Shown here one piece after another: positions 6,378-60,929 of a stretch of DNA of 64,000 bases (position 1 is its first letter; the number at the start of each line of letters is the position of its first letter). Both the position numbers and the translations under genes were made by a program. Origin of the DNA: Chiloscyllium plagiosum. Its lineage: Eukaryota. The stretch spans positions 7,732,707 to 7,796,706 of the forward strand of contig NC_057718.1 of NCBI RefSeq assembly GCF_004010195.1, given 5' to 3'. Under the pieces are notes generated by a model. It was not told where the DNA came from, ran no database searches, and saw only the letters and a program-made list of their open reading frames with translations.

Positions 6378-6496
6378 TGGGAGATGCAGATGCTGGAGAT
6401 CAGAGTCGAGAGTGTGATGCTGGAAAAGCACAGCAAGTCAGGCAGCATCCAAGGAGCAGGAGAATCGACGTTTCGGGCATAAGCCCTTCATCAGGG
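6378..6496 (-). mobile_element. Short non-autonomous Penelope-type element (family A) carrying a hammerhead motif
   Basis: Minus strand CTGATGAAGGGCTTATGCCCGAAACGTCGATTCTCCTGCTCCTTGGATGCTGCCTGAC...CCAGCATCTGCA. Confidence 0.75.
6467..6494 (-). ncRNA. Minimal type I hammerhead ribozyme motif (family A), intact core
   Basis: CUGAUGA-A-GGGC(UUAU)GCCC-GAAAC-GUC; stem I is weak in this copy. Confidence 0.7.
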
Positions 6497-7387
6497 ACAT
6501 ACTGCAGCCTTCCTCAACACTACATGTCCCTCCACCTTTCACTGTGTCATCTGCAAACTTAGCAACAAAGCCCTCAGAATGACAGAGCAGACTCCATGGG
6601 CAGAAGGACCTCCTTCTGTTCCGACATCTCCGATAATTATATGAGGAGAGACTGGTTTGACTGGGCCTGTATTCCCTAGAGTTTAGAAGGATGAGAGGGT
6701 GCTGGTATAAAATTCTAACAGGGTGGGACAGACTAGAGTCAGGGAGGACACTTCCCCCTGCATGCAGAGTCTCAAACACAGTGTCCGAAAATGGGGCTAT
6801 CATTTAGGACTATGAAGAGGAAGCGTTTCTTTTCTGAAAAGGTAGTCAACATGTGGAATTCTCTATCACAGAAGTCAGTAGAGGCCAGATCACTGAACGT
6901 GGAATTAAATTCCTGAGGAAGTGTTGGGTGTAGGTACAGTTACAACGTTCAAAAGGCACTTAGATAAGAACATGAACAAGGAAGGTTTGGAAGGATATGG
7001 GCCTGGAGCAGGCAGGTGGGGGTGGTTTAGGTTGGGGTTTTAATCAGCATGGACCGGTTGGACCGCAATATAACTCTCTATTCTAGAAAGAGAAAGATAA
7101 TTTGTTCCGATTTTAAAGGCATCAAGGGCTATGGTGTTGGAGTCGAGGATCAGACATGATGATATTGAATGATGGAGCAAGCTGAAAGGGCTGAATGGCC
7201 TCTGCCTAGTTTCTCTGCTTTAGAAAGCTGGTTATGGAATATCCCAAGCATCCAATGTCGCAGATAACCCATTGAGTGAGAAGAGCAGCATCTGTTAGAT
7301 AGGTGAGGATTCTGAAGCAATGTCTACATGTTGCCTTGACTTAAAACCAGCTTGCTTAGCTTCTTTGTGAACCCTCTGTCCTTGCAG

Positions 7388-7563
7388 GTACAAATCCAAT
7401 GAAGACTATGTCTATGTGAGGGGGCGGGGCAGAGGAAAGTATATCTGTGAGGAATGTGGAATTCGCTGTAAAAAGCCCAGTATGCTGAAGAAACACATCC
7501 GCACCCACACCGACCTGCGACCTTTCATGTGCAAGTTCTGCAATTTTGCTTTCAAGACGAAAG
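7388..7563 (+). CDS. HIVEP2: HIVEP/Schnurri-family zinc-finger transcription factor, exon encoding most of the C-terminal C2H2 pair ([58 protein letters not shown])
   Basis: Translation matches the hallmark ZAS-C zinc-finger pair of HIVEP1/2/3. Acceptor ...ccttgcAG at 7386-7387, donor GTaaag at 7564. Family is certain; paralog (HIVEP2 vs HIVEP3) is less so. Confidence 0.93.
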
Positions 7564-8381
7564 GTAAAGTCTGTGCGAGCTGGTTTGGGGAAGTGGCGGG
7601 GGCGGGGAGAAACAGGGAGTCCTCGTTCACTTCCCCCTCGTGAATCTGGGGGAAGCTGAAGGGGTTTGCGTTTTTCAGAGCCGCGTGGCACCTTGAACCG
7701 AGGGCTAAGTGAGCAATCGCGAGGTGATTCTGATCGAGCCAAACCCCTTTTCTGAGCTGCTCGATAACAATGGCACTGCCAATTGCCCTCACACTTGTGT
7801 CAATCCCAAATTATGGAACTTAGTGAGGCCACTCAGCCCATTTTAAGCCTGTTCCATCTTTGAGTTAGGTAACACCCAGTTGGCATCTTCAACATCTTGC
7901 CTTGATACTCTTCCTCCTGCCGTTCTGAAGTATTGGAGCCCAGAGTTCTGCCATCGATTCTTCTAATTACATCAGATAGGCAAACAAACCCAATCCACCC
8001 AAGCAGTTTATACACCACTCGAGGCACCTTGTCAATCACTGTAAACCCCTTACTCTCTTCTCCACGAAATGATCATCAGACTTTCCCTTAAATGTGTCAA
8101 TTCGCCTTCTTTGCTTCGAGGTAATGAGATCTCAAAACCTGTCATATTGAGGGAGAGGGGGGGATATTCAGAAATGTTATGGCCATTCGGTCCATTGTGT
8201 TTGCACTGGTTTTAGTACCTAATGTGAATCTCCTGCCTTTAACCCCGTTTACCCACACACCATTTCTATCCACATAATCATCCCATGCTTGCCTGAATGC
8301 CTCAAAAATTGTATAAATACACACCCAATCCTACTCAACCAGTCAGCTGCTTCTTCCCCTGCTTCACAATTTGACACAGGA

Positions 8382-8572
8382 TTTTTTTTAATTTCAAAAA
8401 TACACTTTATACACAAAATATTTTGATGATCTGTACAACTGGTGGGCCATACATACATATACATTCCATTTCTTTACATACAGAGATCAGAATTAAGCAT
8501 ACAGGTCTGTACATTGACTATCCATATATTTAACTGAGGCTTCAGCGGAGCCCATTTACTGAGTGGGCCCCA
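8382..8572 (-). mobile_element. Tx1/L1-clade LINE 3' end (short copy)
   Basis: Poly-T followed by sequence near-identical to 8698-8890. Confidence 0.65.
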
Positions 8573-9800
8573 ATGTCTCACTGTGATACTGACTGCAGGA
8601 CAGTCTTCCCAGAATGCCTCACTGTGATACTGACTGCAGGACATTCTTCCCAGAATGCCTCACTGTGATACTGACTGCAGGACATTCTTCCCAGAATTAT
8701 TTTTTATTTCAAAAATATACTTTATTCATAAAATATTTTGATAATCTGTACAATTTGTCATGCTATACATCCGTATACATTCCATTTCTTGGTATACAGA
8801 GACCGAGTAATCATTCATATATACAGGTCTGTACGACTACATATTTAGCTGAGGCGTCAGCAGAGCCCAAATGACTGCATGGGCCCCATGTTCTTCTTAG
8901 GCAGGCAGATGTTACACGGTGGTCTTTCTCCACCGCGCCTTGGCAGCAGCTGCCCCAAGCTTCAGCACGTCCCTCAACACGTAGTCCTGGACCTTGGAAT
9001 ATGCCAGTCTGCAGCACTCAGTCGGGGTCAACTCCTTCAGCTGGAAGATCAACAGGTTTCGGACCGCCCAGAGAGCGTCCTTCACCGAGTTGATGATGTG
9101 TGATACTGACTGCAGGATAGTCTTCTAAGAATGTCTCAATGTGATACTGACTGCAAGACAATCTTCCCAGAATGCCTCACTGTGATACGGACTGCAAGAC
9201 AATCTTCCCAGAATGCTTCACTGTGATATGCACTGCAAGACAATCTTCCCAGAACGCCTCACTGTGATACTGACTGCAGGACAGTCTTCCCAGAATGCCT
9301 CACTGTGATACTGACTGCAGGACAGTCTTCCCAGAATGCTTCACTGTGATACTGACTGCAGGATAGTTTTCCCAGAATGCCTCACTGTGATACTGACTGC
9401 AGGACAGTTTTCCCAGAATGCCTCACTGTGATACTGACTGCAGGACAGTTTTCCCAGAATGACTCACTATGATACTGACTGTAGGACCATTTTCCCAGAA
9501 TGCCTCACTGTGATACTGACTGCAGGATTCTCTTCCCAGAATGCTTCACAGTGATGCTGACTGCTGGACACTCTTCCCAAAGTGCTTCACTGCAATTCCA
9601 AGAATGCCTCACTGTGACACTGACTAAAGGACAGACTTCCCAGAATGCTTCACAGTGATGCTGACTGCTGGACACTATTCTCAGAATGTTTCACTGCCAA
9701 GCTAACTGTGGGACACTTCCCAGAATGCTTCACTGTGATGCTAATTACAGGGCACTTTTCCCAGAGTGCTTCACTGCCTTACTGGCTGCGGGACATTCTT
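8573..9800. repeat. 41-bp minisatellite (aatgcctcactgtgatactgactgcaggacagtcttcccag), interrupted by a Tx1 fragment
   Basis: Unit recurs at 41-bp spacing (e.g. 8581 and 8622): 3 copies before the insertion and roughly 16 after, degenerating towards 9800. Confidence 0.92.
8698..9100 (-). mobile_element. Tx1/L1-clade LINE 3' end
   Basis: Minus strand translates IINSVKDALWAVRNLLIFQLKELTPTECCRLAYSKVQDYVLRD...W, typical of the Tx1 ORF2 C-terminus; A-rich tail. Confidence 0.75.
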
Positions 9801-12314: not shown

Positions 12315-12744
12315 TAAGATGCAGGGAATACATTTCACTGGTTGGGGACCCTTGAACCAGGGAATGATTATGAATCAGGCCAGTTAGGACTGAGATGAGG
12401 AGAAATCTTCTTCAGGGACGGTAGTGAACCTGAGGAATTCTCTACCGTGGAACACCCAATATATTCAAGAAAGAGATTGACACATTTTAAAACATTAAAG
12501 GAGGATGGTGAGAAAGTAGGAAAACAGCATTGAGGTAGAGGGTCAGTCATGATCATGTCGAATGACAGAACAGGGGCTGAGGGGTCAAAAGGCTTACTCC
12601 AGCTCCTTCCTAAAGGAGGAATAAGACATTCCAGGGTTGAGTTTGGGGACAGGACTAGATTCCGCATACACTAATGGCATTTCCTCGCTCTTCCCACTCT
12701 GTGAAAGCCCTGATACAGAGGTGCCGCTGTTGCACTGAGGTGGA

Positions 12745-12868
12745 TAAAGTCAGAAGTCACATGACATCAGGTTATAGTCCGACAGGCTTATTTGAAATCA
12801 CAAGTTTTCGGAACGCTGCCCCTTTGTCAGGTGCACTATAACCTAGTGTCGTGTGACTTCTGACTCAG
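12745..12868 (-). mobile_element. Family C Penelope-type element with inverted arm and degenerate hammerhead
   Basis: Minus strand CTGACAA-A-GGGGC(AGC)GTTCC-GAAAACTT at 12802-12830; flanking inverted repeats agtcagaagtcacatgac / gtcgtgtgacttctgact. Confidence 0.6.
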
Positions 12869-12996
12869 TCTGTGACAGATTGTAGAATTTGACTTTGAGA
12901 TTAAGGAGAGAGGTGATGTGGAGACACTCTTGTGCAGAGGCGGATAAGTTGTCAGCAGGTAACTGGCTCACTCACCGAACTTCTCTCCCTTTTCAG

Positions 12997-13934: not shown

Positions 13935-14019
13935 GTGAGTATTCACACTGACCCAACACACTCCGTTAAAGAGTCACATTTTCACAATGAGGTGTCTAAA
14001 ACGATGCAGTTTTACTGTG

Positions 14020-20621: not shown

Positions 20622-20811
20622 GTCAAAGCGTGCAGTGCTGGAACAGCTGGTCAGGCAGCATCTGAGGACAGGAGAGGCCTTGGTGATGGGCTTATGCCCA
20701 AAACCTTGACCGTCCTGCTTCTCCAATACTGCCTGACCAGCTGTGCTTTTCCAGCACCACACCTTTTGACTCTGATCTCCAGCATCTGCAGTCCTCATTT
20801 TCTCCTCGTTG
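20622..20811 (+). mobile_element. Family A Penelope-type element with inverted arm, inside the HIVEP 3'UTR
   Basis: Perfect 14-bp TSD TCAGCCCTCCCAGA (20608-20621, 20812-20825); degenerate hammerhead gtgatgggcttatgcccaaaacc. Confidence 0.75.
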
Positions 20812-21793: not shown

Positions 21794-21984
21794 ATGTGCA
21801 GTGGTATTATCTGCTGTGTTCAGTTGTGGTTTCTGCAGGGTTACAGTGTGGAACCCAAGGTGATCCTATTGTCCTGGCTGGCAATATCTTGGACCGTGAG
21901 TTTTGGCTCATGTCATTGTTCAGGACCTGGGCATCGTGAGGAACATCATTTACAAGTTTGCCAACAGGCAGCAGTTTTTTTGTA

Positions 21985-22200
21985 ATAGAAATAGAAATTG
22001 CTGGAAAAGCCTAGCAGGTCTGGCAGCATCTGTGCAGAGAAATCAGAGTTAACGTTTCGGATCGACTGACCCTCCCTCAGAACGGTTCTGAGGGAGGGTC
22101 ACTCGACCCGAAACATTAACTCTGATTTCTCTCCACAGATGCTGCCAGACCTGCTGAGCTTTTCCAGCAGTTTCTATTTCTTTTTCTGATTTACAGCCTC
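21985..22200. mobile_element. Palindromic family B element with two outward-facing hammerhead-like motifs
   Basis: ~95-bp inverted arms centred at 22084; each arm reads CTGAGGG-A-GGGTC(4 nt)GA(C/T)CC-GAAAC(G/A)TTAAC. Confidence 0.8.
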
Positions 22201-22384
22201 AGGAGTTGCTTTGATCTTCAGCGAGTTTTCTGTGTTGGAGTGTGGAGCAGAGTAGGAGATCTCGAGGGGACATGGAGTGGTGGATAACGTGCTGGGATGA
22301 TGTGGCAGATATAATTTACTGCAGAACAGCATGAGGCGATACATTTTGGTGAGAGGAATGAGAAAAAAAAAGTAAGCCAAACAA

Positions 22385-28479: not shown

Positions 28480-29030
28480 GGCATAGAGTCCTACAGCATT
28501 GGGACAGGCCCGTTTGACCAAACTGGTCTATGCCGATCAAAACATCCATCCACACAAACTCCATTTCCCTGCACTTGGCCTGTATCCTTCTAAATCTTTC
28601 CTATCCATGTATTTGTCCGAATGCCATTTAAATGTTGTTAATGTACCCACCTCAACCACTTCCAATGGCAGCACATTCCATACGTGTACCATCCTGTGTG
28701 CACAAAAGTTGCCCCTCAGGTTCCCTTTTATTCTTTCCCCTGTACCTCCATCCCCCAAGGCCCCCTCCCATTTATCTCTCATCCCCCTTGGGCCACCCCC
28801 TCATTCCTGAAGAGCTTATGCTTGAAACGTCGATTCTCCTGTTCCTCGGATGCTGCCTGACCTGCTGTGCTTTTCCAGCACCACTCTCTTTGAATCCGAT
28901 CTCCAGCATCTGCAGTCCTCACTTTCTCCCCCGCCTTAAACTGATGCCCTCTTGTCTTCAATTCCCCATTCCTGGGGAAAACATTATACAAGTCTGTAAG
29001 ATCCCGCTCAGTCTCCTACACTCTGAAGAT
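28480..29030 (-). mobile_element. CR1 LINE 3' end, interrupted by a + strand family A element (~28740-28930)
   Basis: ORF 28537-28782 NFCAHRMVHVWNVLP; family A tail with degenerate hammerhead at 28807-28831. Confidence 0.75.
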
Positions 29031-29033: not shown

Positions 29034-31130
29034 TATTCTGGGTGTGGTTTTGCTCGCTGAGCTGAAAGGTTCACTTCCAGATGTTTTGTCACCCTACTAA
29101 GTAACATCTTCAGTGGGCCTCTGGGTGAAGCACTGCTGATGATATCTGCTTTCTATTTATATGTTTGGGTTTCTTTGGGTTGGTGATGTCATTTCCTGTG
29201 GTGATAGCATTTCCTGTTTTTCTCAGGGGGTGGTAGATGGGGTCTAGCACGATGTGTTTGTTGATAGAGTTCTGGTTGGAATGCCATGCTTCTAGGAATT
29301 CTCGTGCGTGTCTCTGTTTGGCTTGTCCTAGAATGGATGTGTTGTCCCAGTCGAATTGGTATCCTTCGTCATCCATATATAGGGATACTAGTGAGAGAGG
29401 GTCATATTGTTTTGTGGCTAGTTGATGTTCATGTATCCTGGTGGCTAGTTTTCTAGACTTTGATGGTCTTTAGGAATTCTGGGGTGGAGTGGATGGAGTG
29501 GTGTGAGTCAATGACTAAGTGTTTTAGTCTTTAGCGTAGCTCCTTGGCCAGTCTGCAAGTTGGTGTTCCAGGTAGCGCGACTATGGGTCTGAGGGAGGCT
29601 CCTGGTTTGTGAATTTTGGGTAATCTGTAGAAGCGTAGTGTGTTGGATCCACCTGGTTTCATCTTTTGGAAGTCAGTCTTATTTATTTCTCCAGATTTCT
29701 GAAGGTTTTTGAATAGGGCTGTGATTCAGTTCTCCAGTTGTGGGGTTGGGTCTATCGCCACCTGTTGGTAAGTGTTGGTATCTGTAGGTAGTGCGTTCGC
29801 TTTTTCAATGTCGTCTCCTCGATTTAGAATGACTGTCAAGCGACCTTCGTCTGCAGGCAGGATAACATGTTTTTATTTCTTTTTAGTCTTTCCAATGCTT
29901 TCCTTTCTTGTGTATTAAGGGTGTTTCCTTCCTTTTTTCTACTTAATGTTGGTGCGACTACCTGTCTGGTGGTTTGCTGGGTTTGCTGTGAGTTGGTCGT
30001 CTTTCAGTGTTGTTTCTAATGCTGCAAAGAAATCTTTCTTGTCCACATCCTGGCAGTTGTAATTTAATCCTCTTACTAAGACGGCTTTTTCAGTGTCCGT
30101 TAAGGGTCGGTCAGATAAGATTTTTTTATCCATGCTTCTGTGTTGTCATTGTTGTTACTTTGTGTAAGTTTGTCTAGTTTTTTCTGCAGGTCTAGTTTTT
30201 CTCATTTTCTGTGTTTGTCGCTGTCTAATATCTATGGCTTGTTGTACTGTGTCTGTCTATTCATGGTCTGTTGCCATGAGTGAGTAAAAGATTTTTGTTG
30301 TAAAATTTCCCAGTTGTATTTACGGAGTTTGTTGTGGGGCATCGTTAATCATTTCTCTAGGCATTCTGCGGCCGTTTTGCTCTGATATTCTTTTGGCTAG
30401 TGGGGTGTTAAGGGGAGGTTTGTATTGAAAACATTTAGGTAGTACCTGTTTCCTTAGGCATTCGTGCAGGAGGTACAGCTGTTCGTGGGTGGCACTCTGT
30501 CAGATAGCATCTCGGAAATGACTGCCAGACTATTCAGACCCTTTAGCATCATGGTAGCCCATAAACCCACCAACACACTAAAACAGCAGCTAATGAACTT
30601 GAAAGACCCTATACAGACAACAAGCAAAATTAATGTCATTTACAAAATACTGTGCAAAAACTATAACAAACACTACATTGGACAAACAGGCAGAAAACTA
30701 GCCACCAGGACACATGAACATCAACTAGCCACAAAATGACATGACCCTCTGTCAATAGTATCCTTACATATGGATAAGGAAGGACACCACTTCGACTGGG
30801 ACAACACATCAATCCTCGGACAAGCCAAACAGAGACATGCACGAGGATTCCTAGAATCATGGCATTCCAACCAAAACTCTATCAACAAACACATTGTGTT
30901 AGACTCCATCTACCACCCCCTGAGAAAAAGAACAGGAAATGACCTCACCAACCCAAAGAAACCCAAACATATAAATAGAAAGCAGAAATCATTAGCAGTG
31001 CTTCGCCCAGAGGCTCATTGAAGATGTTACCTAGTAGGGTGATGAAACGTCTGGAAATGAACCTTCCAGCTCAGCGAGCAAAGCTCCATCCAGAAACTCA
31101 ACCTGAGCTACAAATCTTCTCAAACTCTCA
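29034..31130. mobile_element. Penelope-like element (Poseidon/Penelope type), internally deleted, with inverted 3' segment
   Basis: Minus 29454-30470: N-terminus (LSDRPLTDTEKAVLVRGLNY) and RT start (FYRLPKIHKPGASLRPI). Plus 30475-31021: GIY-YIG endonuclease (NVIYKILC...HYIGQTGRKLATRTHEH...FDWDNTSIL...EAWHS). Its 3' part is repeated inverted at 29036-29453. Short TSD aagataaa. Confidence 0.9.
31016..31053 (+). ncRNA. Hammerhead motif in the PLE terminal repeat (family D), C3-to-U variant; mirror copy at 29080-29113 (-)
   Basis: (U/C)UGAAGA-U-GUUACC(UAGUAG)GGUGA(U/C)-GAAAC-GUC|UG. The two copies carry different lesions, so their consensus is intact. Confidence 0.7.
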
Positions 31131-34100
31131 AAGATAAAAGTCCTAACTTTATGCCACAGTTTTTGCTTCCAAGTCTAGAATGCTGTTGGTTCAAGATGCA
31201 GTCTTATAACTTTCAGACTTAACCTGTCATGCTTTGGGGCAGTGTTTTTCCTTTAATTCTCAAGGGGGACATGTGCATCACCCATTGTCTTTGAAAGGAT
31301 TGACTCTTGGGGACTGTTTCAGAGGGCAACTGAGAACCAATCCCATTCTTGTGGGTCTGAAGGAATGGATATCATCCTACATGGAGCGTTGGTGAACCAG
31401 ATTGGTATTACACCTGCAGTTGGCATGAGGCAAAATTCTAATTCCAGATTTTTAATGATTAATTCAAGTTTCACCATCAGTTATGGAAGGATTCAAAACA
31501 TTGTCCCAAAACATCAAACAGGGTTTTTTGTTTACTCATCCAGTGACGTTGCCATGATAGAACTGCCAGTGGCGATTCTCTCCTGTGCGTGAGCTATCAT
31601 AGTGATGTGTTTGGTCAAGATGATACTAAAACGTCTTATGGTACTATTTTGGAGAAGATCAAGGCGGTTTTCCTTAGGTATCCTGCCCAAAATGTATCAC
31701 TCATCCAGCATCACTGGGTCAAAATCCTCAAATTCCCTCCCAAAGGGGATTGTGGATGAACCTACAGCACATGGAGTGTAGCGGTTCAAGGAGGCAGCTC
31801 ACCCCCACCTGGTGGTGAGGGCAACTAGGGACAGGCAATAAATGCTGGGCCCAGCCAGTGATGCTCACATCCAATGCGAGAATAAACAAATAAAATCGCA
31901 AGTGTCAAATTGCTATTAGCAGAGGAACTTGCTTTGTCCAGTTTGGGTCTCTGTTACCCGGTACAACAGTTGCTATCCAGCCTTGGAATGTTGGGAATGG
32001 AACTCAACATCATCAGAGTCACACCATAACTCATAATGTTAACTCGGTTTCTCTCTCTCTCTCTCTCGACAGATGCTGCCAGACCTGCTGAGTTTCTGCA
32101 ACACTTTCTGTGTTGTTTCTCCTTCCTCATTTAGACTGGAATGCTCCGCTGTCAGCCATTTGGAACTGAAATCTTCCAGGGGAGAAGTCATCAATATTTC
32201 ACCAGCCAAGCACATGTGCGGGCTGGTAGAGACCAGGCTGCCAAGTTTCCTCAGCTAAGTGTTAACTTACCTGGCACGAGAAGAGTCAAAATTGACTAAG
32301 TTTCTCATTGTCGAAGCTTCAACTCAATCTTACTCTTTGCTCTGAGTGAGACCAGCATGAAACAACACACTAGCAGCTGTGTGGGAGGTGGGATTTCAGG
32401 GCAAAGGTGGGGGGGGGGGGGGGGGTCAAGCAAATCTGGGAACACTGCCCAGAAACACCTCCACACAAAATTCCCAGCATGCACAAGGTACATCGGCCTA
32501 TCTACTCAGGCTCACTGCAGTTACCAGCTACAGGATACTAACAGCCAAAAGAAAGGGAAAGTCGGTCAGTTACAACATTAGAACCAGGAGCAGGAGGAGG
32601 CCATTCAGCCGCTCGGTCCTGCTGTGTCATTCAATATGATGGTGGCTGATCACATCTCAATCTCAATTCCATTTTCCTGCCCGTTCCCCATAACCCTGCA
32701 CCCATTACGAATTAACAATCCGTCTACTTCCTCCTTTAAGTTGATTAATGTTCAAGCGTGCACTGTACTCCACCGAATCACGACCCTTTGAGAGAAGTAA
32801 TCTCTCCTCATCTCAGTTTTAAATCTACCTCCCTTTACTCTAACGCCACGACCTCTCGTTCTAGATTGACCCACAGGGAGTAGCATCCTTTCTCGATCTG
32901 CTTTATCACGACTTTATCAATCCCCTTTGGCATCAGTTGACCACAATGGCACGGAGGCAGAAGTGGGTACTGCAGATTAGTGTCAAGATTAGAGCGGTGC
33001 TGGAAAAGCACAGCAGGTCAGGCAGCATCCGAGGAGCAGGAGAGTCAACATGTTGGGCAAAAGCCCTTCATCAGGAGTTGTACTGAATTGCACACAATGG
33101 TACTGAACCATCCCCATCCTCCTTGAGTGGTACAACAAACGGAGCTCGTCCACCCATTTAAAAAACTATGGTCAGGCCATGAGCATGTTTTGGTGGGCAG
33201 CTCAGAAACCAGTGAATTACCCTCAGGGAGTTACGCAGCTCAAGTCCCAATATTCCCCTTTCCATAGCCCAACCGCACTAAGACTAACACTCTCCCTCGC
33301 CCCACACCCAGCTTAGATTGGCCACAAGAAAATGTTATTCTAACGCCAATATTTGACATTATGGTAGAAAGAATAACAAATGTCTGGCTAGCGGATTCAG
33401 ACCGTAATTCAGTCTCTGTAGGCTTGTTTGCATTCATAAACTGAATTGAATGATGTGATTGAATTTTTACCCTGTAGTTAGACCCTGCTGGCTGACTAGT
33501 GTGTCTATATTATGTACACAGTGCTTCGAATTAACTGCTCTGAGAGGGAGCTTCAAGTCAGTGGTTTATTACCATGCTGTTTATCTAAATACTGGCTGGT
33601 GGTCTCGTGGTTAAGTATTGGATTGAGTAAGCTTGAGAGATGGACACTCAGTCCAGTGCATTGTGAATTCAAACTAACGCTCAAAGAAGCTGAGTTCAGT
33701 TTTAAAACCTGGCCTTGCTCTAGGCAACTGTGAAACTGATTCATGCGTAACTCAATGGGGGGGGGTGGAAATCTGACATCCTTGCACAGCGTGAGCTTGC
33801 CAGCGTGTCTGACCAGAGACAATGTGCTGTTCCTACTCAACAGGTCTGACAGCATCTGCAAAGGGAGAAAATAGGCAGAGGAAAGTGTTTTGTATTGAAT
33901 GTGACTTCCCCAGAGCTGAAGGGAGATGGAAGTTTGGAAGTAGGGTCGCTGGACCCGAAACACGTACTCTGCTTTCTCTCTCCACAGATGCTGCCAGACC
34001 TGCTGAGTTTCTCCAGCGATTTCTGTTCTTGTTGGAGATAGAGGTTTGGTGGGCTTTATCCTCTGAGAAGGTGGGGCAAGACGAGTGAGGCAGAGATGAG

Positions 34101-35295: not shown

Positions 35296-35374
35296 TTATG
35301 CCCGAAACGTCGACTCTCCTCCTTGGATGCTGCCTGACTGCTGTGCTTTTCCAGCACCACACCCTTCGACTCTT

Positions 35375-37480
35375 GGCTGATGAATGCCACATCGAACAAT
35401 ACTTGGAGGAAGCACTGAGAGTGGCATGGGTGCAGCATGTACGCTGGAAGGGGATTTCAATGTCCATCACCAAGAGTGGCTCGGCAGCAGCATTACAGGT
35501 CAAGCTGGTCGGGTGCTGAAGGACATAGCTACTAGACTGGGTGTGCAGCAGGTGGTGAAGGAATAAACAAGGGGGAAAGATCCATGACAGTATCGGTAAG
35601 AGTGACCACTGCACAGTCCTTGTGGAGATCAAGTCCTGCCTTCACATTGAGAATACATTCCATCGCATTGTATGGCACTGTCACTGTACTAAATGGGACA
35701 GACTTCGAACTGATCTAGCAGCTCAAGACCGGACATCCACGAGGTGCTGTGGGCCATCAACAGCAGCAGAATTGTACTCCAGCACAATCCGCAACCTCAT
35801 GGGCTGGCATATCCCCCACTCAACCATTACCATCAAGCCAGGAGATCAACCCTGGTTCAATGGAAAATGCAGGAGGGCATCCCAGGAGCAGAACCAGGCA
35901 TACCTGAAGGTGAGATGATAACCTGGTGAAGCTACCAAACAGGACTACTTGCATGCCAAATGGTGTAAACAGCCAGTGCTAGACAGAGCTAAGTGATCCC
36001 ACAACCAACGGATCAGATCTAAGCTCTGCAGTCCTTCCATGTCCACTCGTCAACGGCAGTGGACAATTTAACAACTCACTGGAGGAGGAGGCTCCACAAA
36101 TATCTCGATCCTCAATGATGGAAGAGCCCAGCACATCAGTGAAAAAGACAAGGCTGATGCATTTGTAACAATCTTCAGCTAGAAATGCTGAGTGGAAGAT
36201 CCATCTTGGCCTGCTCCTGGCATCCTCTGCATCACTGATACCTGTATCCTGCCAATTCAATTCACTCTACATGATAACGAGAGACAGTTGGAGGCACTGG
36301 GTATTGCAAAGGCTGTCGGCCTTGACAACATTCTCGCAGTAATGCACGATCAGTGTGCTTGCACAATGGGAAGGCAGTTCTGGATGCTGGAGGTCAGTCA
36401 TCTCAGCTCCAAGACATTCCTCCAGGCGTTCCTCAGGGTAGTGTCTGATGCCCTACCATCTTCAGCTGCTTCATCAATGACTTTCACTCCATCATGAGGT
36501 CAGAAGTGGGATGTTCACCGATGATTACACAATGTTCAGCACCATTCGTGACTCCTCATCCACTGAAGCAGTCTGTGTCCAAATGCAACAAGATCTGGAC
36601 AATATCCAGGTTTGAACTGACAAGTGACAAGTAACATTCACACCACACAAATGCCAGGTAATGATCATCACCAACAGAAGAGAATCTAACCAGTGCCCCT
36701 TGATATGCAATGGGGATTACCATCACTGATGGGCTTTTGCCCGAAACATCGATTTTCCTGCTCCTCGGATGCTGCCTGAGCTGCTGTGCTTTTCCAGCAC
36801 CACTCTAATCCAGAATCTGGTTTCCAGCATCTGCAGTCATTGTTTTTAACCATCACTGAACACCCCATTATCAACATCTTCGGGGTTACCATTGACCAGA
36901 AATTGAACTGGACATACCATATAAATACAGTGGCTATACCAGCAAGTCAGACAGAGGCTAGGAATCCTGCAGTGAGTAACTCACCTCCTGACTCCCCAGT
37001 GCCTGTTCACCGCATACAAGGAACAAGTTAGCAATGTGATGGAATACTCCCCATGAGCCTGATCGGGTGCAGCTCCAACAACACTCAAGAAGTTTGACAC
37101 CATCCAGGACAAAGCAGTCCACTTGATTGGAAACACATCCACAACCACACCCACAAACATCCACTCCCTCCACCACCAACAGTAGCAGCAGTGTGTACCA
37201 TCTGCATGATGCATTGCAGAAATTCACCGATTCTTAAACATGACCACTTCCATCTAGAAGGGCAATGGCAGAAGATCCATGGGAACGCCACCCCCTGCAA
37301 GTTCCCCTCCAAGTCACTCACCATGCAGACTTGGATATATTTCCCCATTCCTTCAGTGTAGCTGGGTCAAAGTCCTGGAATTCCCTCCCTAATGGCATTA
37401 TGGGTCAACTTATAAGAAAGGGACTGCAGTGGATCAAGAAGCTCACCACCACCTTCTCAAGGGCAGCTGGGGACAGGTAA
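35375..37480 (+). mobile_element. CR1-clade LINE family 2: APE endonuclease end, RT (internally deleted) and 3' end
   Basis: GDFNVHHQEWLGS and IGKSDH endonuclease motifs, KPGDQPWFN, RT remnants and LDTIQDKA. Confidence 0.85.
36730..36848 (+). mobile_element. 5'-truncated family A element nested in a LINE
   Basis: TSD ACCATCACTGA (36719-36729, 36849-36859); begins within the hammerhead motif (gggcttttgcccgaaac). Confidence 0.8.
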
Positions 37481-43828: not shown

Positions 43829-43950
43829 CTGAAGAAGAGTCATACTGGACTTAAAACATTAACTCTGTTTTATCACTCCACAGATGCTGTCAGACCTGCT
43901 GACATTCTCCAGCGTTCTCTGTTTTTGATTCAGATTTCCAGCATCTGCCG
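43829..43950 (+). mobile_element. Family B element with degenerate hammerhead
   Basis: CTGAAGA-A-GAGTC(ATACTG)GACTT-AAAACATTAAC followed by the family tail cagatgctgtcagacctgctg. Confidence 0.6.
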
Positions 43951-44649
43951 AACTTTGCTTTGAGTAACATTGAATTTGTGTTGCCGACACCTAGTTGATA
44001 GCAGTGACCTTGTAAACCTCCTCTGGACTCCCTCCAAGGCAACATATCCTCTCTTTAAATATGAGGTCCAAAACTGCTCACAATATTCCAAATGTGGTCT
44101 GACCAGAGCCTTATACAGCCTCAGCAGTACATCTCTGCTCGTGTATTTCCTTACCTCAAGGGCATTAATGAACCAAGTGGGGATTTTCCTCACAACAGTT
44201 TCATGAGACTCTTAACTTCAGACTTTTCTCAATCTTAAATTCCACCATCTGCCACCGCAGGATTCAAATCTGAGTCTATAGAATATTACCTGGGATTATC
44301 ACTTCCCCACTCTGAGAGAGCTTGACATGTGTTGTCAGGGAGGATGGTTCCTCTTACAGAAGAGTCTAGAACTATGGGTCATTGTTTACAAATTCAGGGT
44401 CACCGTTTACGAAGGACTATTTCCCCGTAGAGTTTGGAACTTGCTTCCTGAAAAGGTGTTAGATAAAAAGTCTTTAGTCAAATGCGGGTAGGTTCTTCCT
44501 AAACAAGGGGAGTGAAAGGGTCGAGGGACTGCATGGGAATGAGAATGTTTGAGGCTCGTAATTTATGCACAGTATCAAGAAAAAGACAGAACCAGCACAG
44601 CCAAATGGCCTCCATCTGTGCCATTACCGTTCCACAAATTGTACGAACA

Positions 44650-48918: not shown

Positions 48919-49962
48919 TGTTATGGACTAGGCCAGACCACTCAAAACATTCTTAAGCAGGCAGCCCAGACAATAACTTTGCAACGTGTTTTGATAAGTG
49001 TACAGCGAAAATTACCTAGAGTAAGTTAGATTACCTACTGTATGGGAACAGGCCCTTCAGCCCAACAAGTCCATGCCAACCCTCCGAAGAGTAACCCACC
49101 AAGACCCATTTCCCTCTGACTAATGCACCTAACATTTTGCCTGTCCTCGGATGCTGCCTGAATTGCTGTGCTCTTCCAGCACCACTGATCCAGAATCTGG
49201 TTTCCAGCATCTGCAGTCATTGTTTTTACCCCACCTAACACTATGGGCAATTTAGCATGACCAATCCACCTGACCTGTACATCTTTGGACTATAGGAGGA
49301 AACCGGAGCACCCGGAGGAAACCCACGCTGACACGGGGAGAACATGCAAACTCCACACAGACAGTCACCGAGGCTGGAATCGAACTTAGGCCCCTGGCGC
49401 TGTGAGGCAGCAGTGCTAACCACTGAGTCACCGTGCCGTTAGCGAGGTTGACTACCAGGTTTTAAAACAGACAAAAATTTATTCACAAAATTACACAATG
49501 AAACACAAAGAACAGAATAAAGAACCCCTCCAGAACTCAGTCTATCCAAACTAGGCTTAATTAAGCTGCTCCGAATATGCACAACGGTCCCAATAAGCAA
49601 ACCCCCTTAAACACAGTAAAAATGAAACAAAGGCTGATTTGTTGAAGTTAGAAGGGCAGAAAGAGAGAGAGCTGAGCAGCCTTTCTTCACACAGTCCACA
49701 GCTGAGCTCCCAACTTCTGGACTGAACTGCTCAGGTAGACAGCTGGCCGCGCCCCCTTGACTTATACAGGTTACTTTAAAAACATAAAAGCTTTGGCCGA
49801 AAGTCTTATCTGTTTCCATATAAACAAAAAGGCCTTTCATTCTGCACCAAACCCAGCCGCTTCAGAGCTCGGGCTGTGTACAACCCCTCTGAATAAAAAC
49901 CAAGGACACTGTATTCTTGAGAAAAGGAACAGCTTTTGGGATAAAGGATCAGCTTTGTGACA
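48919..49962. mobile_element. Solo LTR with nested HE1 SINE (49030-49437) and nested family A fragment (49135-49231)
   Basis: TG...CA termini (TGTTAT / GTGACA); 4-bp TSD ATCT at 48915-48918 and 49963-49966. Confidence 0.8.
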
Positions 49963-51714: not shown

Positions 51715-53560
51715 TTTTTTATTGTATATATTTATTGAAAAAGATGTTCCTTTTTTTACAAAAAAACCCCACAAACCAAAATAAAAAGTTATAAAAGTAC
51801 AATAGTAAGAAAAGTAGGAATAATAGTGCACTATTATGTTACATTACAATATCATTAACAATAAACTGCCTACTATTCTCCAGATTGTAGTCGGCTCTTA
51901 TTTACTTAATCCCAACTAACACAAACTTAAATTAAGTAAAATAACATTAAATTCAATTGCAATCCACCAAACTTGAATTACACTACATTGTACTATATTA
52001 CATTACTCCACTTGCCGCACTTCTGTCAAGGTTCCCGTTCAAGGGGGCAACAGTGATTATATCCGTATTTATTAGGCCTGCCCCCCTCTGGGGTCTCTGG
52101 ACCGCCATATATGACCCTCATGGCTATACAAAGGCCCTTATCACTACCGCCGACAAATCCATGTCTATATAATTTAAAAAGAGCCACCATGTCTCATAAG
52201 GTTTCTCTGTTCCGTGGTGCACCATACTTGTCAGGTAATCCTGAGGGACGTGCTCCGTCACAGGTCTGCATCACCCTACAAGACCTGGCGACTTGTCTGA
52301 TATCCATTTCATTAGGATGCTTTTCCTCACACATTACGTCAGAGTATTGACTAATCTCCTCCCGTGCTCATCCAAAGAGGGAAGATTCGGGAGCCCTAAG
52401 ATGAAGGATACCGGATCCCCCCCGATCCCAAATCTCATGGAGTCTCTCCATATCCCCCCAGGCATTCCCTCTTTGCAGATGATATAAGGTACTTACTGAG
52501 AGAGCACTCCCGCAACGGAACACTCTACGTTCTATATCAGACTTGTAGGGCTGGGTCATAAGTGTGGTTTTCTTCTGTATAAAGTCTCTAACTTGGAAAT
52601 ATCAGGAAAGTTCCCTATTAGGGATTCCGTATTTCTCATATAATTGGCTAAAAGACATCATGACCTCTCCCTCAAACAGATCTCCCAGACAGGAGATTCC
52701 TTTATTGAGAGTTATTGGAAAAGCACAGCAGGTCAAGCAGCATTTGAGGAGCAGGAAAATTGACATTTCAGGCTGGAGCCCTTTATCAGGAATGGGTCCT
52801 CTTGCAAGGATGCCTACCTTGAAGAAGTTCTCCTCTCTCTACAAAGATCGCAGTGAGTCCCTCTCTCACTGTACTCCCCAAGTCCTCTCCTCCACTCTCA
52901 ACTCTGATCTCCAGCATCTGCAGACCTCACTGTCTCCTAGGAGATTCCTTTACCCTCCCATGCTCTAAAGCTGGAATCCATTGATCCCGGCTTAAATTCT
53001 GGGGCTCCCACTAATGGGGTAAACGGCAAAGCCTCGAACAAGTTGCCCTCACTCTGTTGCACCATCCTCCATGCTTTTATTGTATTTATAATAATTGGAC
53101 TTTCACAATACTCTTTATTTGGTTGATTTAGAAATAAATGTTACTGATCACATCTTATTCATGAAAAGCAAGTTTACGAGGGGACACCACCTGTGAGGCC
53201 TCCACACCTAACCAATTTGATTTCAGGTAAATACACACCCATTTGCCTACATATGAACAGCAGAGCACCTATTTGATATTTCTTCAGATCCAGGAGATCC
53301 ACCCCATCCATATCCTGCGGAAGCTGCAACTTAGTAAATTTAATTAACGGACACCTACGGCACCAAATAAATGACCCAAGCCATTCCGCAATCCTCCGCA
53401 GCACCTGTTTGGGTAATAATAACGGGAGCATCCTTATAGGACATAACAACAAAGGGAGAACATTCATCTCGATCAACGCTATATGGCCTAGCCATAATAT
53501 GGACAGTCCCTCCCATCGCTGCAAGTCCTGTTTTATGTAAGGTTCTGTTAATTCATTTTT
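51715..53560 (-). mobile_element. L1-clade LINE 3' portion (degenerate ORF2 C-terminus and A-rich tail)
   Basis: ORF 53174-53617: IKQDLQRWEGLSILWLGHIALIEMNVLP...SFIW...KLQLP...DLKKY, typical of post-RT L1 ORF2. Confidence 0.75.
52705..52938. mobile_element. Family A element with inverted arms and internal cargo
   Basis: Perfect 14-bp TSD AGGAGATTCCTTTA (52691-52704, 52939-52952); degenerate hammerhead at 52761-52789 (-). Confidence 0.75.
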
Positions 53561-53938
53561 TAGATTAGAATCAGTCTGAACATTATGGCACAGACAGCAG
53601 CACACAGGGGTGCTCACACCTTCAATACATTATCTAGGCTGACACCAACTGCTGAAGTTCACTTGAGAATGTAACTTTTAAAAAGTTTTGCAATTTACAT
53701 ATGAAAGAAGTGAAACTAACATGGTCATTCTAACAGATGAGAGACTTAACAAACAATCAAGGTATTTTTCAATGTATAATTTCAGTTACATCACACTGTA
53801 AACTTTTGCTATAAATTCTGTGTCTTACAATTGTGTCCTCCACAACCACCTGATGAAGGAGCGTTGCTCTGAAAGCTAGTGTTTCCAATTAAACCTGTTG
53901 GACTATAACCTGGTGTTGTGTGATTTTTAACTTTGTAC
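53560..53938 (+). mobile_element. Family C Penelope-type non-coding element
   Basis: Ends in a hammerhead motif plus the aaacctgttggactataacctggtgttgtgtg tail, also seen at 25651, 27150, 58710/59610 and 60315. Confidence 0.7.
53847..53881 (+). ncRNA. Minimal type I hammerhead motif (family C), intact core
   Basis: CAC-CUGAUGA-A-GGAGC(GUU)GCUCU-GAAAG-CUA|GUG: 3-bp stem I, 5-bp stem II, palindromic AGCU. Confidence 0.75.
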
Positions 53939-53939
53939 T

Positions 53940-54950
53940 CCTCAAGGACGTTTTCAGTTTTTAATCTATTTCGAGGCACATCAACATCTACATCATCTGG
54001 ATTTGATTCCTCACTCTATGGGGCAGTAACTAACACCTGTTTCTCCAGTTCTTTCTCTCTAATACAATATAGTGACAACGTGTTCACATGACACACCCAA
54101 TACCATTTTTTTTTCTATCTGACATCTTTATTAAATAATTCCTCTGTATCAACTTTTTCTCCATTTGATAGAGGATACTAAACCTGGCTTTGAAGGGATC
54201 GCCTATTATTGGTAACAATACTAACACGCCATCCCCTTGAGAAAATGTCTGAGTTTCAAAGCTTTTATCTACCACCTGTATCATTCTCTCCTGTGCCCTC
54301 TTTAGATGATGTTTAGCTAATTCAACTACTCTATTTAATCTCTCCCTCACCTCTGATACATAATCCAAGTGTGAGATCTCTGACTTTGGTCATGCCAATT
54401 TTCTTTAATTAATTTCAAGGGACTTCTCATTTCATGACTGAATATGAACTCAAAGCGAGTGAACTGAGTGGAGTCATTTGGGGCATCTCTAATTGCAAAC
54501 AATACAAATGGGGTACCTTTAGCCCAAACATTCGGATAATCCTGACAGTATGCTCTCAATATGGTCTTGTAGGTCTGATGCCATCTTTCTGAAGCTCCCT
54601 AGGATTCAGGATGATACGCACTGGATTTAAAGTGCTGTCTACCTAAGCTATCCATAACCTCCTTAAATAGCCTAGCAGTAAAGTTTGACCCTTGCTCCAA
54701 CTGAATCTCTCTGGGTAGCCCATACCATGTGAAGAAAGCTACTAACTCCTCTACCACCTTTTTTGCCTTGATATTTCAAATGGAATTGCCTCGGGAAATC
54801 TGGTAGACAGATCCATTATGGTTAACAAATACTGGTTCCCACTTTTAGTTCTCGAGAGGGGAACTACACAATCAATTATAACACGCGTGAAAGGTTCTTC
54901 AAATATGGGAATTGGTAACAAATGTGTTGGTTTTAACCACATCCTGGTAT
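53940..54950 (-). mobile_element. Gypsy LTR-retrotransposon integrase remnant
   Basis: PIPIFEEPFTRVIIDCVVPLSRTKSGNQYLLTIMDLSTRFPEAIP, QGSNF, SAYHPES, ER..., PFVLFAIRDAP; frameshifted. Confidence 0.88.
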
Positions 54951-58060: not shown

Positions 58061-58861
58061 CCACTTCTCAAAAAAAACAGCAGCTGCTGCTATAGATTCT
58101 GCTGTTGCCATTCACACTTCTTTCAGGCGTTGCTCTGATTTCTTTATGTGTCTGGATACCACTCCCTTTAATTTTGTATCATCATCCCATTGGTCAGTTA
58201 TTCCCTCCTGCCATCTACAATTCCACAGATCTTTAAGTTATTTTTCTCTCACAGCTACACAGTTCCCTTGCCGGGAGAGCACTGAAAACGGGGCCATTGA
58301 ATATGGGCTTAAGGCAGTATTGGAAAGATTCAAAATAACGATGGAGTCTGTGGCTATTAGAGTGTGGGGTTAGGGCCAGACACAAAAACAAAACAGCCAA
58401 TGGAACGTTGTCTGACCCCAGGTTGAGGGCCTCACCCCTAAAGTGCATTGTCTGACCTGAGATGTCACCTTTACACTGATAAAACCTTAAGTTATCTCGG
58501 GGCAGTGACTTGAAAGAAATTCTGGGATTTGTGTATTAATCAATCAAACCCTGCACCTCCGTTCCGACTTAATAACCAGCTATATTTGTTCAATACATTC
58601 AGGTAAGTTGCATGACCCTTTGATCTTTTACTTATAAATTATGTCTCTGATGTACTCTCTCTCACTAGCTGCCTGAGGAAGGAGCAAAGTTCCAAAAGCT
58701 TTTAGTTTCAAATAAACCTGCTGTTGTTGTGGTTCTGTTCGCCGAGCTGGAAGTTTTTGTTGCAAACGTTTCGTCCCCTGTCTAGGTGACATCCTAAGTG
58801 CTTGGGAGCCTCCTGTGAAGCGCTTCTGTGGTGTTTCCTCCGGCATTTATAGTGACCTGTC

Positions 58862-59264
58862 NNNNNNNNNNNNNNNNNNNNNNNNNNNNNNNNNNNNNNN
58901 NNNNNNNNNNNNNNNNNNNNNNNNNNNNNNNNNNNNNNNNNNNNNNNNNNNNNNNNNNNNNNNNNNNNNNNNNNNNNNNNNNNNNNNNNNNNNNNNNNNN
59001 NNNNNNNNNNNNNNNNNNNNNNNNNNNNNNNNNNNNNNNNNNNNNNNNNNNNNNNNNNNNNNNNNNNNNNNNNNNNNNNNNNNNNNNNNNNNNNNNNNNN
59101 NNNNNNNNNNNNNNNNNNNNNNNNNNNNNNNNNNNNNNNNNNNNNNNNNNNNNNNNNNNNNNNNNNNNNNNNNNNNNNNNNNNNNNNNNNNNNNNNNNNN
59201 NNNNNNNNNNNNNNNNNNNNNNNNNNNNNNNNNNNNNNNNNNNNNNNNNNNNNNNNNNNNNNNN
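58862..59264. other. Assembly gap (N run)
   Basis: Run of n. Confidence 1.
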
Positions 59265-59495
59265 ATAGTGTCTTGATGCAACTTCGTTTGTGTGTATTGG
59301 GGTGGTTGCTTTCATAGTTCAGGACTTGGTCTGTGTGTGTGGCTTTCCTGTGTACCTTAGTGGTGAATTCTCCGTTTGGTGTTCTCTGTACCATCACGTC
59401 TAGGACAGCTGAAACTGACAACCGGAAGCGGCGGGGACAGGCCACTATAAATGCCGGAGGAAACACCATAGAAGCGCTTCACAGGAGGCTCCCAA

Positions 59496-59535
59496 GCACT
59501 GAGGATGTCACCTAGACAGGGGACGAAACGTTTGC
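59496..59535 (+). ncRNA. Hammerhead motif in the PLE terminal repeat (family E), intact; mirror copy at 58762-58801 has G5-to-U
   Basis: GCA-CUGAGGA-U-GUCACCU(AGAC)AGGGGAC-GAAAC-GUU|UGC: 3-bp stem I, stem II with one mismatch, palindrome AAACGUUU. Confidence 0.78.
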
Positions 59536-60929
59536 AACAAAAACTTCCAGCTCGGCGAACAGAACCACAGCAATGAGCACCCGAGCTACAAATCTTCTTA
59601 CAAACTTCAAATACACCTGTTGGACTTTAACCTGATTGTGTGTTTTTTGAATTTATTGAATGGAGGAGTAGGCAGAAGAGGCCTAATCCTAATTTGTACG
59701 TCTGTGGTTGAGTTCTTATCTTTCCTTGCCTCTCTTCTCACTTAAAACTTATGGTCTTATGGTCTAAAACCTGTCATATTTGCAACATTTTTCAATTGTG
59801 TTGCAAGGCCATCAAACCTGAACATTTAACTCTCTTTCTCCCTGCATTAGCCCAACCCATCAAACTGCTTTATTTTTATTTCAGTTTTCTGGCATCCTCG
59901 GTATTTTATGATTGATTGGATGAACATGGTACACGTTCAGGGATGAATGTTGGCCAAGACGCACATGAAATGCTCTTGCTTTTCTGCGAACAGTCTGTAC
60001 TTGATTAGGAAGTTAGCTTAGTGTCACATCTGAACGTGCACACCTTCGACAGTGTAGCCCACATTTAACCCTTTAATACTCAGCTAGGGGAGGTAGTCAA
60101 AGTTTGGTCTGGAATACACTGCAGAAAGGACTTTGGGAGGAGGTCCATAGAAACCTCTACGAGGGAATTGGATGAGAACCTCATGAGTAAACATACCTAA
60201 GGCATTTTATTTCTAAATCCCTGATTTAGAACTTGCCCTCTTTGTGATCTGAGTTCAGGTCAGGAACAAGGTGTCTGGATCAGCTTTGCCAATTCACTTC
60301 ATCAAAACATGGTTGGAAGTCACATGACACCAGGTTATAGTCCAATAAACCTTGGTGTCATGTGACTTATCCACCTCAGTCCAACCCTGGTGCCTCCACA
60401 TCATGTAGGAATTCGGGAATAGGAGTTCAAAAATGGGAAAGGCCAAGATGATTGAGAATCTTGAGCCACAGACTTGGGCAGGAACATTGGGATTGGGTTT
60501 CTTCCTACCCGAAAAGACAGAAGGACGATACCAATCAATGTTGCTGCCCCCTCACCCGTTTCACAGAGGTAGGACAAACAGTTCTCACACGGGCAGAGGT
60601 CCCACTATGGAGAGCTGCCAACCAATTGGATTGCTCAGCACCTCAGAAGCAGCAGCGGCATTAATGGGAACTAAAAGCAGATCCCCAATGGTGAAACCAT
60701 TAGAGGCAAGACCAGAGGGGATGAGACCTCAAGGGGTGGGGAGAGCAGGTAGAGTTCATGATGGACTGCCCAGGGATGAGGAAGGAGCCTTTGTGGGGTC
60801 ACTTCTGGTCTTCCCTTACCCCCTACCCCTTTACCGCTTACTCTAGCCTGAAAATAGAAGCCTTGTAGGAGATAACGGTGTTGTGATAATACCACTGGGC
60901 TAATAATCATAGGATTTTGAAAAAAATCA

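Follow-up and report, generated by a model that had tools for sequence, protein, structure and literature searches.

Five repeat families with minimal hammerhead motifs, very probably of the Penelope-like kind, in a stretch of the Chiloscyllium plagiosum genome

What kind of element repeats a hammerhead-ribozyme core, on both strands and with differing stems, along a single stretch of shark DNA? The question is raised by 64,000 nucleotides (nt) of Chiloscyllium plagiosum (contig NC_057718.1, positions 7,732,707 to 7,796,706; this whole stretch is hereafter the window). An earlier note, made from the sequence alone, had counted about 19 hammerhead motifs in five families and had proposed that several parallel retroelement families occur at very high density. 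We find that every noted place is a member of one of five repeat families (A to E) with a hammerhead-like module. The motifs are very probably minimal type I hammerhead ribozymes (min-HHRs) of the kind carried by the pseudo-long terminal repeats (pseudo-LTRs) of Penelope-like elements (PLEs), in five coexisting families whose copies decay neutrally after insertion. This assignment, which the earlier note had also made, is carried by published min-HHR features, by a PLE-type open reading frame (ORF) joined to family E, and by insertion hallmarks. Of the approximately 21 motif places in the window, no more than four could still be active; the non-intact sites noted earlier are decayed or truncated copies of the five families.

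A descriptor of the motif required CUGANGA, an optional bulge, a helix II of 4-8 bp with a loop of 3-8 nt, GAAA, a self-complementary 15.2/16.2 pair, U16.1, and an H17 that is not G. Intact-core matches in the window numbered four, versus a mean of 0.025 and a maximum of 1 in 40 dinucleotide-type shuffles. They lie in family A at 6494-6467 (-) and 28176-28149 (-), in family C at 53850-53878 (+) and in family E at 59499-59532 (+). When up to one core mismatch was allowed, eight window sites were matched (0.225 in shuffles). The single-substitution sites are B 22080-22051 (-), with A9 changed to G; D 31018-31051 (+), with C3 changed to U; C 58673-58701 (+), with G12 changed to A; and E 58798-58765 (-), with G5 changed to U. 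Two or more core defects, deletions or truncation characterize the places at 20684, 28807, 33045, 35296, 36726, 52761, 43829, 33940, 12802 and 29080 and, within family B, both arms of 12188-12255 and the + arm of 22082-22123. All the places noted earlier hold family members, but as ribozymes they were overcounted, with four intact copies, four with one substitution, and fossils for the remainder.

BLAST searches of the window with one real copy per family as query gave 43 rows. Of these, 11 were cross-family duplicates and two matched the B reference in its flank alone; once both groups are set aside, 30 separate copies or fragments remain, of which 21 reach the ribozyme and nine are tail-only or nearly so. 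Head-to-head inverted pairs occur at six places. Family B had been seen on both strands, as it indeed is, because of such pairs, the arms belonging to inverted copies, and the same pairs are the reason for the hairpins reported by Rfam, whose only output was sub-threshold and microRNA-like (12163-12280, 21997-22171, 20632-20757 and 28100-28254). A covariance model, R1, was built from A, B, D and E rows and identified 17 window sites at E <= 0.016, six of its window sites being training rows. Family C is absent from R1 because MAFFT placed the C rows out of register on the 3' side; both C sites scored at E about 7, the intact copy receiving only 8.7 bits because C was left out of the model, and the places at 12802 and 35296 were missed. 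The copies and fragments are as follows.

6385..6495 (-): family A copy whose 5' truncation falls at the ribozyme; min-HHR 6494-6467 intact, with a weak helix I; R1 43.1 bits.
12086-12230 (-) and 12213-12315 (+): family B head-to-head inverted pair; both modules degenerate, core TTGACAA.
12736..12833 (-): family C copy with a degenerate ribozyme, at least two core changes; missed by R1.
20632..20806: family A inverted pair, a hairpin; degenerate ribozyme 20674-20713 (+); R1 18.9 bits.
21981..22219: family B head-to-head inverted pair; modules 22086-22045 (-), A9 to G only, and 22082-22123 (+), A9 to G plus ACAU.
28049-28208 (-) and 28211-28272 (+): family A head-to-head pair; intact min-HHR 28176-28149 (-), helix I of 4 bp; R1 50.5 bits.
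28764..28917 (+): family A copy; ribozyme 28801-28837 with a helix II deletion; R1 32.3 bits.
29036..29246 (-): family D copy; ribozyme 29119-29077 with CpG-type decay (GAAA to AAAA, ACGU to ACAU).
30900..31130 (+): family D copy; ribozyme 31018-31051, C3 to U.
32993..33076 (-): family A copy; GAAACGUC destroyed, with helix II and the first core box preserved; R1 21.6 bits.
33814..34039: family B head-to-head pair; the + copy, 33931-34039, lacks the CUGANGA box.
35296..35360 (+): family A copy cut off inside the ribozyme, without CUGANGA; missed by R1.
36727..36848 (+): family A copy; 2-nt deletion after CUGAUG, ACAU for ACGU; partial R1 match, 20.1 bits.
43831..43961 (+): family B copy that keeps the first core box; GAAA to AAAA, ACAU; R1 30.1 bits.
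49134..49230 (+): tail-only fragment of family A, beginning 2 nt past the predicted cut.
52694..52793 (-): family A copy; G8 to A and other changes; R1 17.4 bits.
53700..53942 (+): family C copy with intact min-HHR 53850-53878; helix III AGCU, H17 = A.
58667..58704 (+): family C-like ribozyme module; G12 to A; R1 8.9 bits.
58723..59623: family E head-to-head pair around an N run (58862-59264), arms 58723-58861 (-) and 59403-59623 (+); ribozymes 58798-58765 (-), G5 to U, and 59499-59532 (+), intact.
Other tail-only fragments: 25644-25704 (C), 27149-27199 (C), 32053-32119 (B), 55312-55385 (B), 59608-59654 (C) and 62239-62335 (A).

The N run at 58862-59264 fills exactly the space between the two arms of the inverted E pair; a second N run in the window lies at 45379-45583. 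Such runs may be masked sequence or gaps in the assembly.

In all five ancestral families the core reads C3 U4 G5 A6 N7 G8 A9 / G12 A13 A14 A15.1, followed by U16.1 and a non-G H17. The families differ in the remaining parts:

Family A: N7 U; bulge A; helix II GGGC/GCCC; helix III ACGU; H17 C.
Family B: N7 A; bulge A; helix II GGGUC/GACCC; helix III ACGU; H17 U.
Family C: N7 U; bulge A; helix II GGAGC/GCUCC; helix III AGCU; H17 A.
Family D: N7 A; bulge U; helix II GUUACC/GGUGAC; helix III ACGU; H17 C.
Family E: N7 G; bulge U; helix II GUCACCU/AGGGGAC with one A-G mismatch; helix III ACGU; H17 U.

An unpaired nucleotide was found between A9 and 10.1 in every family. The helix III hairpin is absent and 15.2/16.2 is self-complementary, so two copies can pair. 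Helix I has approximately 3-4 bp, the exception being the A copy at 6494 with one contiguous pair; that exception apart, the extra nucleotide, the short stem I and the loopless ACGU or AGCU stem III had all been described correctly from the window. PLE min-HHRs are characterized by an extra nucleotide between 9 and 10.1, G10.1-C11.1, a palindromic 15.2-16.2 and a short helix I (Cervera and de la Pena 2014, PMC4209133), and the shark motifs share every one of these traits. The stem pairing claimed for the families was borne out in an alignment of 15 rows of A, B, D and E, the three C rows of the original 18 having been dropped for the MAFFT misregister. The G10.1-C11.1 closing pair is GC in 12 of these rows and GU in three. 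Across families, which here amount to about four independent ones, 80% of cells are paired versus 61% in shuffles (none of 500 shuffles was as high), and shifting the 3' partners by 1-3 columns reduced pairing to 22-46%. Helix II is paired in 93.7%. Six pairs change on both sides, three in helix II and three in helix I.

A lone full-descriptor match at about 2802 (-) of locus L004, with helix II AGCA/UGCU and helix III AGCU, is either a chance occurrence or a sixth family.

How common the families are was determined by pattern counts over the 3.56-Gb assembly, each with a reversed-pattern control that gave 0 matches every time:

A, 30-mer core, 2 mismatches: 98,580 matches.
C, 32-mer core, 2 mismatches: 33,342 matches.
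C, 33-mer tail, 2 mismatches: 87,729 matches.
E, 36-mer core, 3 mismatches: 23,672 matches.
B, 28-mer tail, 1 mismatch: 17,518 matches.
D, 37-mer core (inferred), 3 mismatches: 6,148 matches; exact matches at least 100.
B, 37-mer core (inferred), 3 mismatches: 5,028 matches; exact matches 14.

The B and D 37-mers are ancestors rebuilt from decayed copies with CpG sites restored, because no intact B or D copy was present in the sample used for insertion tests (277.5 kb, consisting of the window and 67 loci, with six overlapping or irrelevant loci dropped). The ancestral 30-37-mers of the five families keep the core, occurring 5,028 to 98,580 times and the controls 0 times. The five core counts total 166,770, about one per 21 kb, and stand for near-intact rather than active motifs because the allowed mismatches can kill a ribozyme. 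Since they also amount to about three per 64 kb, the window is typical of the genome; the very high density claimed by the earlier note applies to the genome as a whole, and the window is ordinary. Families E and A are young, with many identical copies, and B and D are old and decayed at CpG. In BLAST, A cross-matches B and D cross-matches E, and the five families represent about three lineages. The proposal of several parallel retroelement families accordingly stands for five families, with about three lineages beneath them and a coding PLE link for E only.

All families carry published PLE insertion hallmarks (PMC8557442, PMC11167929). Those listed by Craig et al. (PMC8557442) are strong 5' truncation, partial tandems that serve as pseudo-LTRs, a second copy that is inverted, 5'-truncated and set directly against the 5' end, and, in some insertions, a tail of 30-40 bp. 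In the 277.5-kb sample, 5' truncation was found in all families, with start positions spread out. The 3' ends, taken as BLAST alignment ends and accurate to a few nt, are bimodal after the cut: +40 (12 copies) and +70 (19 copies) in E, +50-65 and +95-100 in A, and +50-80 and +100-110 in B. Same-family neighbours within 600 bp are arranged -+ (tails outward) in 44 of 54 cases, with three +-, four ++ and three --. Among different-family neighbours within the same distance, -+ accounts for seven of 35, with 15 +-, six ++ and seven --. For E and for the C tail alike, the first 100 places listed contained 15 close -+ pairs and no close +- pair. Partial tandems of the pseudo-LTR type were found for E at loci L072 (ribozymes 2,267 nt apart) and L073 (1,191 nt) and for A at L074 (406 nt).

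About 20 of 57 E copies, as well as both arms of many inverted pairs, begin near 211-220 nt before the cut, a preferred 5' boundary.

Among the five families, E is the one for which a link to a coding PLE is supported. Locus L072 contains two E ribozymes on the same strand, 2,267 nt apart, with an ORF between them. In family E the ribozyme overlaps the ORF start, the ATG consisting of A9, the bulged U and G10.1. Some 50 nt upstream of C3 there is a TATAAAT box, noted in the E pair of the window at 58723..59623. P0001 includes MSPRQGTKRLQ, the peptide encoded by the E ribozyme. From the ATG, the L072 frame runs with frameshifts into a 219-aa piece containing FYGLPKVHKPDIPLRPIVS, and then into N. 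This piece has 106 database relatives at E <= 0.001; the closest is a Chiloscyllium punctatum protein with RVT_1 (89% identity), and more distant ones come from flatworms, rotifers and others. Two relatives, P0103 and P0086, have RVT_1 plus GIY-YIG, the alignment to P0103 having E = 4e-20. Past the N run, 55 residues of L072 are 95% identical to the C-terminal part of the bamboo-shark protein P0036. This segment ends ...VVYKIPC..C.KHYI, which we take to be the start of the PLE GIY-YIG domain; a stop follows in the L072 copy, and the next E ribozyme lies about 170 nt after the segment. On these grounds family E very probably belongs to a canonical PLE, and its relative, family D, probably does as well. 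In the D copy at 30900..31130 the ATG is likewise formed from A9, the bulged U and G10.1, and the frame is open to the end of the copy.

At L073 (2073-3299), a 242-aa ORF piece separates two E ribozymes of the same strand, the distance between which is 1,191 nt; the arrangement resembles a tandem of an E derivative that has lost internal sequence.

Families A, B and C consist of short units that appear non-coding, with a common layout of a ribozyme followed by a 3' module of 40-110 nt. The frame from the AUG in CUGAUGA stops after 17 codons in A and nine in C, and the longest A copies have only about 330-370 nt in common. A complete A insertion of about 500 nt was found at L074 272-771 (the minus-strand orientation of G000:C1:3867900-3869100), consisting of a ribozyme with a long tail, a 280-nt body, and a ribozyme with a short end. 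Its terminal direct repeats are 95 nt long and 100% identical, each with a ribozyme; the unit measures 406 nt, and a duplication of 10-13 nt (AGCACCTATC, perhaps extended by CTG) is present on the flanks of the insertion. This suggests recent activity of a non-coding 406-nt A unit. The 5' ends of A gather 2-5 nt upstream of C3, with 19 copies at -32 to -29 (C3 = -27), and C copies likewise tend to begin just upstream of C3 (1-5 nt for A and C together), so that the ribozyme is the first element of the unit. Within the sample, the 5' ends of A pile up on the A of TTATTCC, 4 nt before C3, TTATTCC being the reading of the commonest A form there. This sequence resembles an initiator element, and transcription of A may begin at the first base of helix I. 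A tRNA-like head, the classical test for a short interspersed element (SINE), was absent from the three loci searched. We infer that PLE enzymes mobilise all three families as non-autonomous passengers; their tail- or core-anchored counts together exceed 2 x 10^5 (about 98,600 A, 87,700 C and 17,500 B).

A tentative extension of this reading is that A to C are very short, SINE-like parasites of Penelope enzymes. A unit that begins exactly with the 5' strand of helix I would have its ribozyme transcribed first, and a cut after H17 would strip each transcript of a capped 30-nt leader consisting of the ribozyme; alternatively, the motif would be a handle for recognition of non-coding RNAs in trans. 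If this were true, the hammerhead of A to C would be a device for 5'-end processing or uncapping, or a trans handle for the PLE protein, a role unlike that of a unit-length cutter of tandem transcripts, and no vertebrate would be known to hold a larger natural store of hammerhead motifs than this genome.

The following mechanism, whose steps from transcription to insertion are drawn from the literature, would produce such copies. Tandem copies would give rise to transcripts longer than one unit. The PLE protein would nick both DNA strands and start reverse transcription past the ribozyme, at sites within the 3' module; starting there would generate 5'-truncated copies, two 3' ends approximately 30-45 nt apart, and head-to-head pairs. 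Because the ribozyme is without a helix III hairpin, an active core would be assembled only when the ACGU or AGCU palindrome pairs with a second copy, or with help from protein, and would then cut after H17. Inserted copies would decay neutrally, chiefly at CpG sites, which would explain why only four of about 21 window places are intact. In the anole PLE Poseidon PAc, the protein nicks and extends both DNA strands and reverse transcription begins at two internal sites (Frangieh et al. 2024, PMC11167929); two-strand extension and two internal starts of this kind would yield inverted pairs and tails.

Several results weigh against reading the motifs as PLE min-HHRs that cut. A single-cell poly(A) RNA run labelled as the same species gave 1,977 reads over the repeats of locus L064, which belong to A and E. 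These reads fall on both strands and reveal no site where molecules begin or end, such a library being a poor test for 5'-OH ends; a second run gave 0 reads and was uninformative, and two further data sets consist of contigs, in which molecule ends do not appear. Only one or two of about 60 genomic A copies start at the predicted cut (+1), where starts would be expected because cDNAs from cut RNA should begin there. The commonest A form pairs at three of the first four helix I positions, with a U-U mismatch, and the covariation comes from about four independent families, in rows that also supplied the structure. The Rfam hammerhead families (clan CL00010) gave no match in the window at the gathering score or at E <= 10, nor on 28090-28270 alone (181 bases) even at E <= 10, where the descriptor and R1 had found motifs. 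The Rfam hammerhead models expect a helix III hairpin, which would be a reason for the missing match. On the coding side, the reverse transcriptase core of the tandem E unit reads N (N runs at L072 1-953 and 3104-3666), so the architecture of E rests on flanks and database relatives, and the unit is disrupted by frameshifts and stops. The 219-aa piece itself has no Pfam match, and a genome-wide search for Pfam GIY-YIG gave one weak match among 150 scored of 14,403 candidates. No coding partner of A, B or C was found in the DNA sampled, and the 20 longest window ORFs contain no credible Pfam domain, the only match being NTS_2 at 17.4 bits against a 25-bit cut-off. Five ORFs adjoining E ribozymes likewise gave nothing above the Pfam cut-off. 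Co-folding of two copies did not give the hammerhead dimer; nearest-neighbour energies do not model the core. Published results present a similar picture, min-HHRs having low in vitro activity even as dimers (PMC4209133).

It is rather unlikely, in our judgement, that the module is kept for some other reason, such as recognition or initiation by the PLE protein, the ORF start, or a promoter or initiator, with the core a relic that does not cut in vivo. The absence of read ends at the cut and of a genomic 5'-end pile-up at +1 would fit this explanation, as would the overlap of the D and E core with the ATG and coding sequence and the start of A and C units 1-5 nt upstream of C3, in the commonest A at TTATTCC, which resembles an initiator. 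Published work is in keeping with it: in the anole PLE cleavage needs protein, ribozyme mutants are without effect on insertion in vitro, and no RNA-seq reads end at the cut (PMC11167929). Against a relic stand families A, B and C, in which no ORF runs through the module, yet all 11 fixed core letters, the bulge and H17 are kept. Both helices differ between families but remain paired, and in one-mismatch B copies the commonest non-CpG change falls on N7, the free core position (about 15 among the first 86 listed). We regard it as unlikely that A to C are non-LTR retrozymes, whose tandem hammerhead repeats would be cleaved into single units, closed into RNA circles and copied back from these, instead of simple 5'-truncated passengers of target-primed reverse transcription by PLEs. 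In favour, the A unit measured at L074 is 406 nt long with a ribozyme in each terminal repeat, close same-strand pairs exist at 406 nt and 439 nt, and a 2026 preprint (10.64898/2026.07.22.740005) sets the mean retrozyme consensus at 363 bp for its only chondrichthyan species and makes the case that PLE pseudo-LTRs gave rise to retrozymes. The shark copies are mostly dispersed singles or inverted pairs, however (44 same-family -+ against seven ++ or --), no array of more than two units occurs in the 277.5 kb, and unit ends do not match the cut site. The RNA run, from a library ill-suited to finding them, contained no back-splice-type joints.

That a short degenerate pattern was matched here by chance, or that the sites are miniature inverted-repeat transposable elements (MITEs) or microRNA-like hairpins unrelated to ribozymes, is extremely improbable. 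Rfam lists nothing in the window beyond its sub-threshold microRNA-like hairpins, and a looser first descriptor gave three matches versus 0.51 in shuffles (shuffle maximum three) and missed E. The full descriptor, by contrast, gave four versus 0.025, genome counts reach tens of thousands where controls give 0, and chance was rejected on these shuffle and reversed-pattern controls. The arms of the hairpins are two 5'-truncated 3' ends of one retroelement placed head to head with variable junctions, and no tRNA-like head was found in the three loci searched. A MITE or foldback transposon was also rejected, there being no fixed terminal inverted repeats and the arms being truncated at variable 5' points.

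Read as PLE min-HHRs, the shark motifs represent a known arrangement, notable for its copy number and for abundant non-coding units that start with the ribozyme. Like published PLE min-HHRs (PMC4209133), they are type I, lack the helix III hairpin, form several consensus families per genome, and occur mostly as solitary truncated copies, with opposite-strand pairs 100-700 bp apart. They differ in helix II, which has 4-5 bp in shark families A, B and C versus 7-8 bp in the schistosome families, and in number: approximately 167,000 near-intact motifs (2-3 mismatches), where coelacanth has about 4,000 and Xenopus 9,000, counted by different methods. Those two figures were termed remarkable in the same paper, which does not mention cartilaginous fish (PMC4209133). 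The D/E ORF resembles that of anole PAc (PMC11167929) in having its ATG at the start of helix II and the cut 25 nt past the ATG codon, and genomic copies of PAc also end at two sites approximately 30 nt apart downstream of the ribozyme, the 'tail'. In contrast to PAc, where the 3' ends lie at about +85 to +92 after the cut, those of E lie at about +40 and +70, and the shark protein belongs to another PLE lineage. The Sm-alpha elements of Schistosoma, according to PMC6765202, are high-copy short retroposons in which a promoter is followed by a hammerhead near the 5' end; their hammerheads are described there as canonical, with loop-loop contacts, whereas the shark motifs are minimal and without helix III. 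A PLE expansion in a related shark is already in print (10.1101/443036), and the 2026 preprint (10.64898/2026.07.22.740005) places one chondrichthyan species among the vertebrates that bear retrozymes. The literature searched contained no paper on hammerhead ribozymes in sharks specifically. Animal non-LTR retrozymes are reportedly short non-coding elements, a few hundred nt in length, that carry a type I hammerhead; it has been proposed that they derive from PLEs and are non-autonomous. Unlike these, the shark copies do not form long tandem arrays but occur as dispersed single units or in head-to-head pairs.

The ribozyme-retroelement association of bony fishes, amphibians and reptiles thus extends to a shark, at a far larger scale (about 1.7 x 10^5 near-intact motifs in 3.56 Gb versus the thousands reported elsewhere). 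Five families with differing helices around one invariant core constitute a natural compensatory-mutation series for the minimal hammerhead, and the presence of young families (E, A) next to old ones (B, D) makes ribozyme turnover datable. For annotation, many microRNA-like hairpins and unclassified repeats in shark assemblies are head-to-head PLE fragments. Knowledge of how such ribozymes work is unchanged by these findings.

The window has other features. An open frame of 381 codons at 12963-14108 (+), rich in S-P-R-R repeats and containing an acidic D/E run, has no Pfam match. It resembles a large coding exon of a host gene, so the hammerhead-bearing repeats may sit in or around a gene. A 41-nt satellite occupies 8572-8697 and 9099-9803 (12 copies, 90% match), its diverged flanks having higher-order periods of 63, 80 and 104 nt. 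A 33-nt minisatellite at 14897-15551 (19.8 copies, 85% match) gives weak chance matches to R1 (E 0.9-7.5). At 47973-48241, a 136-nt unit is present twice with 99% identity.

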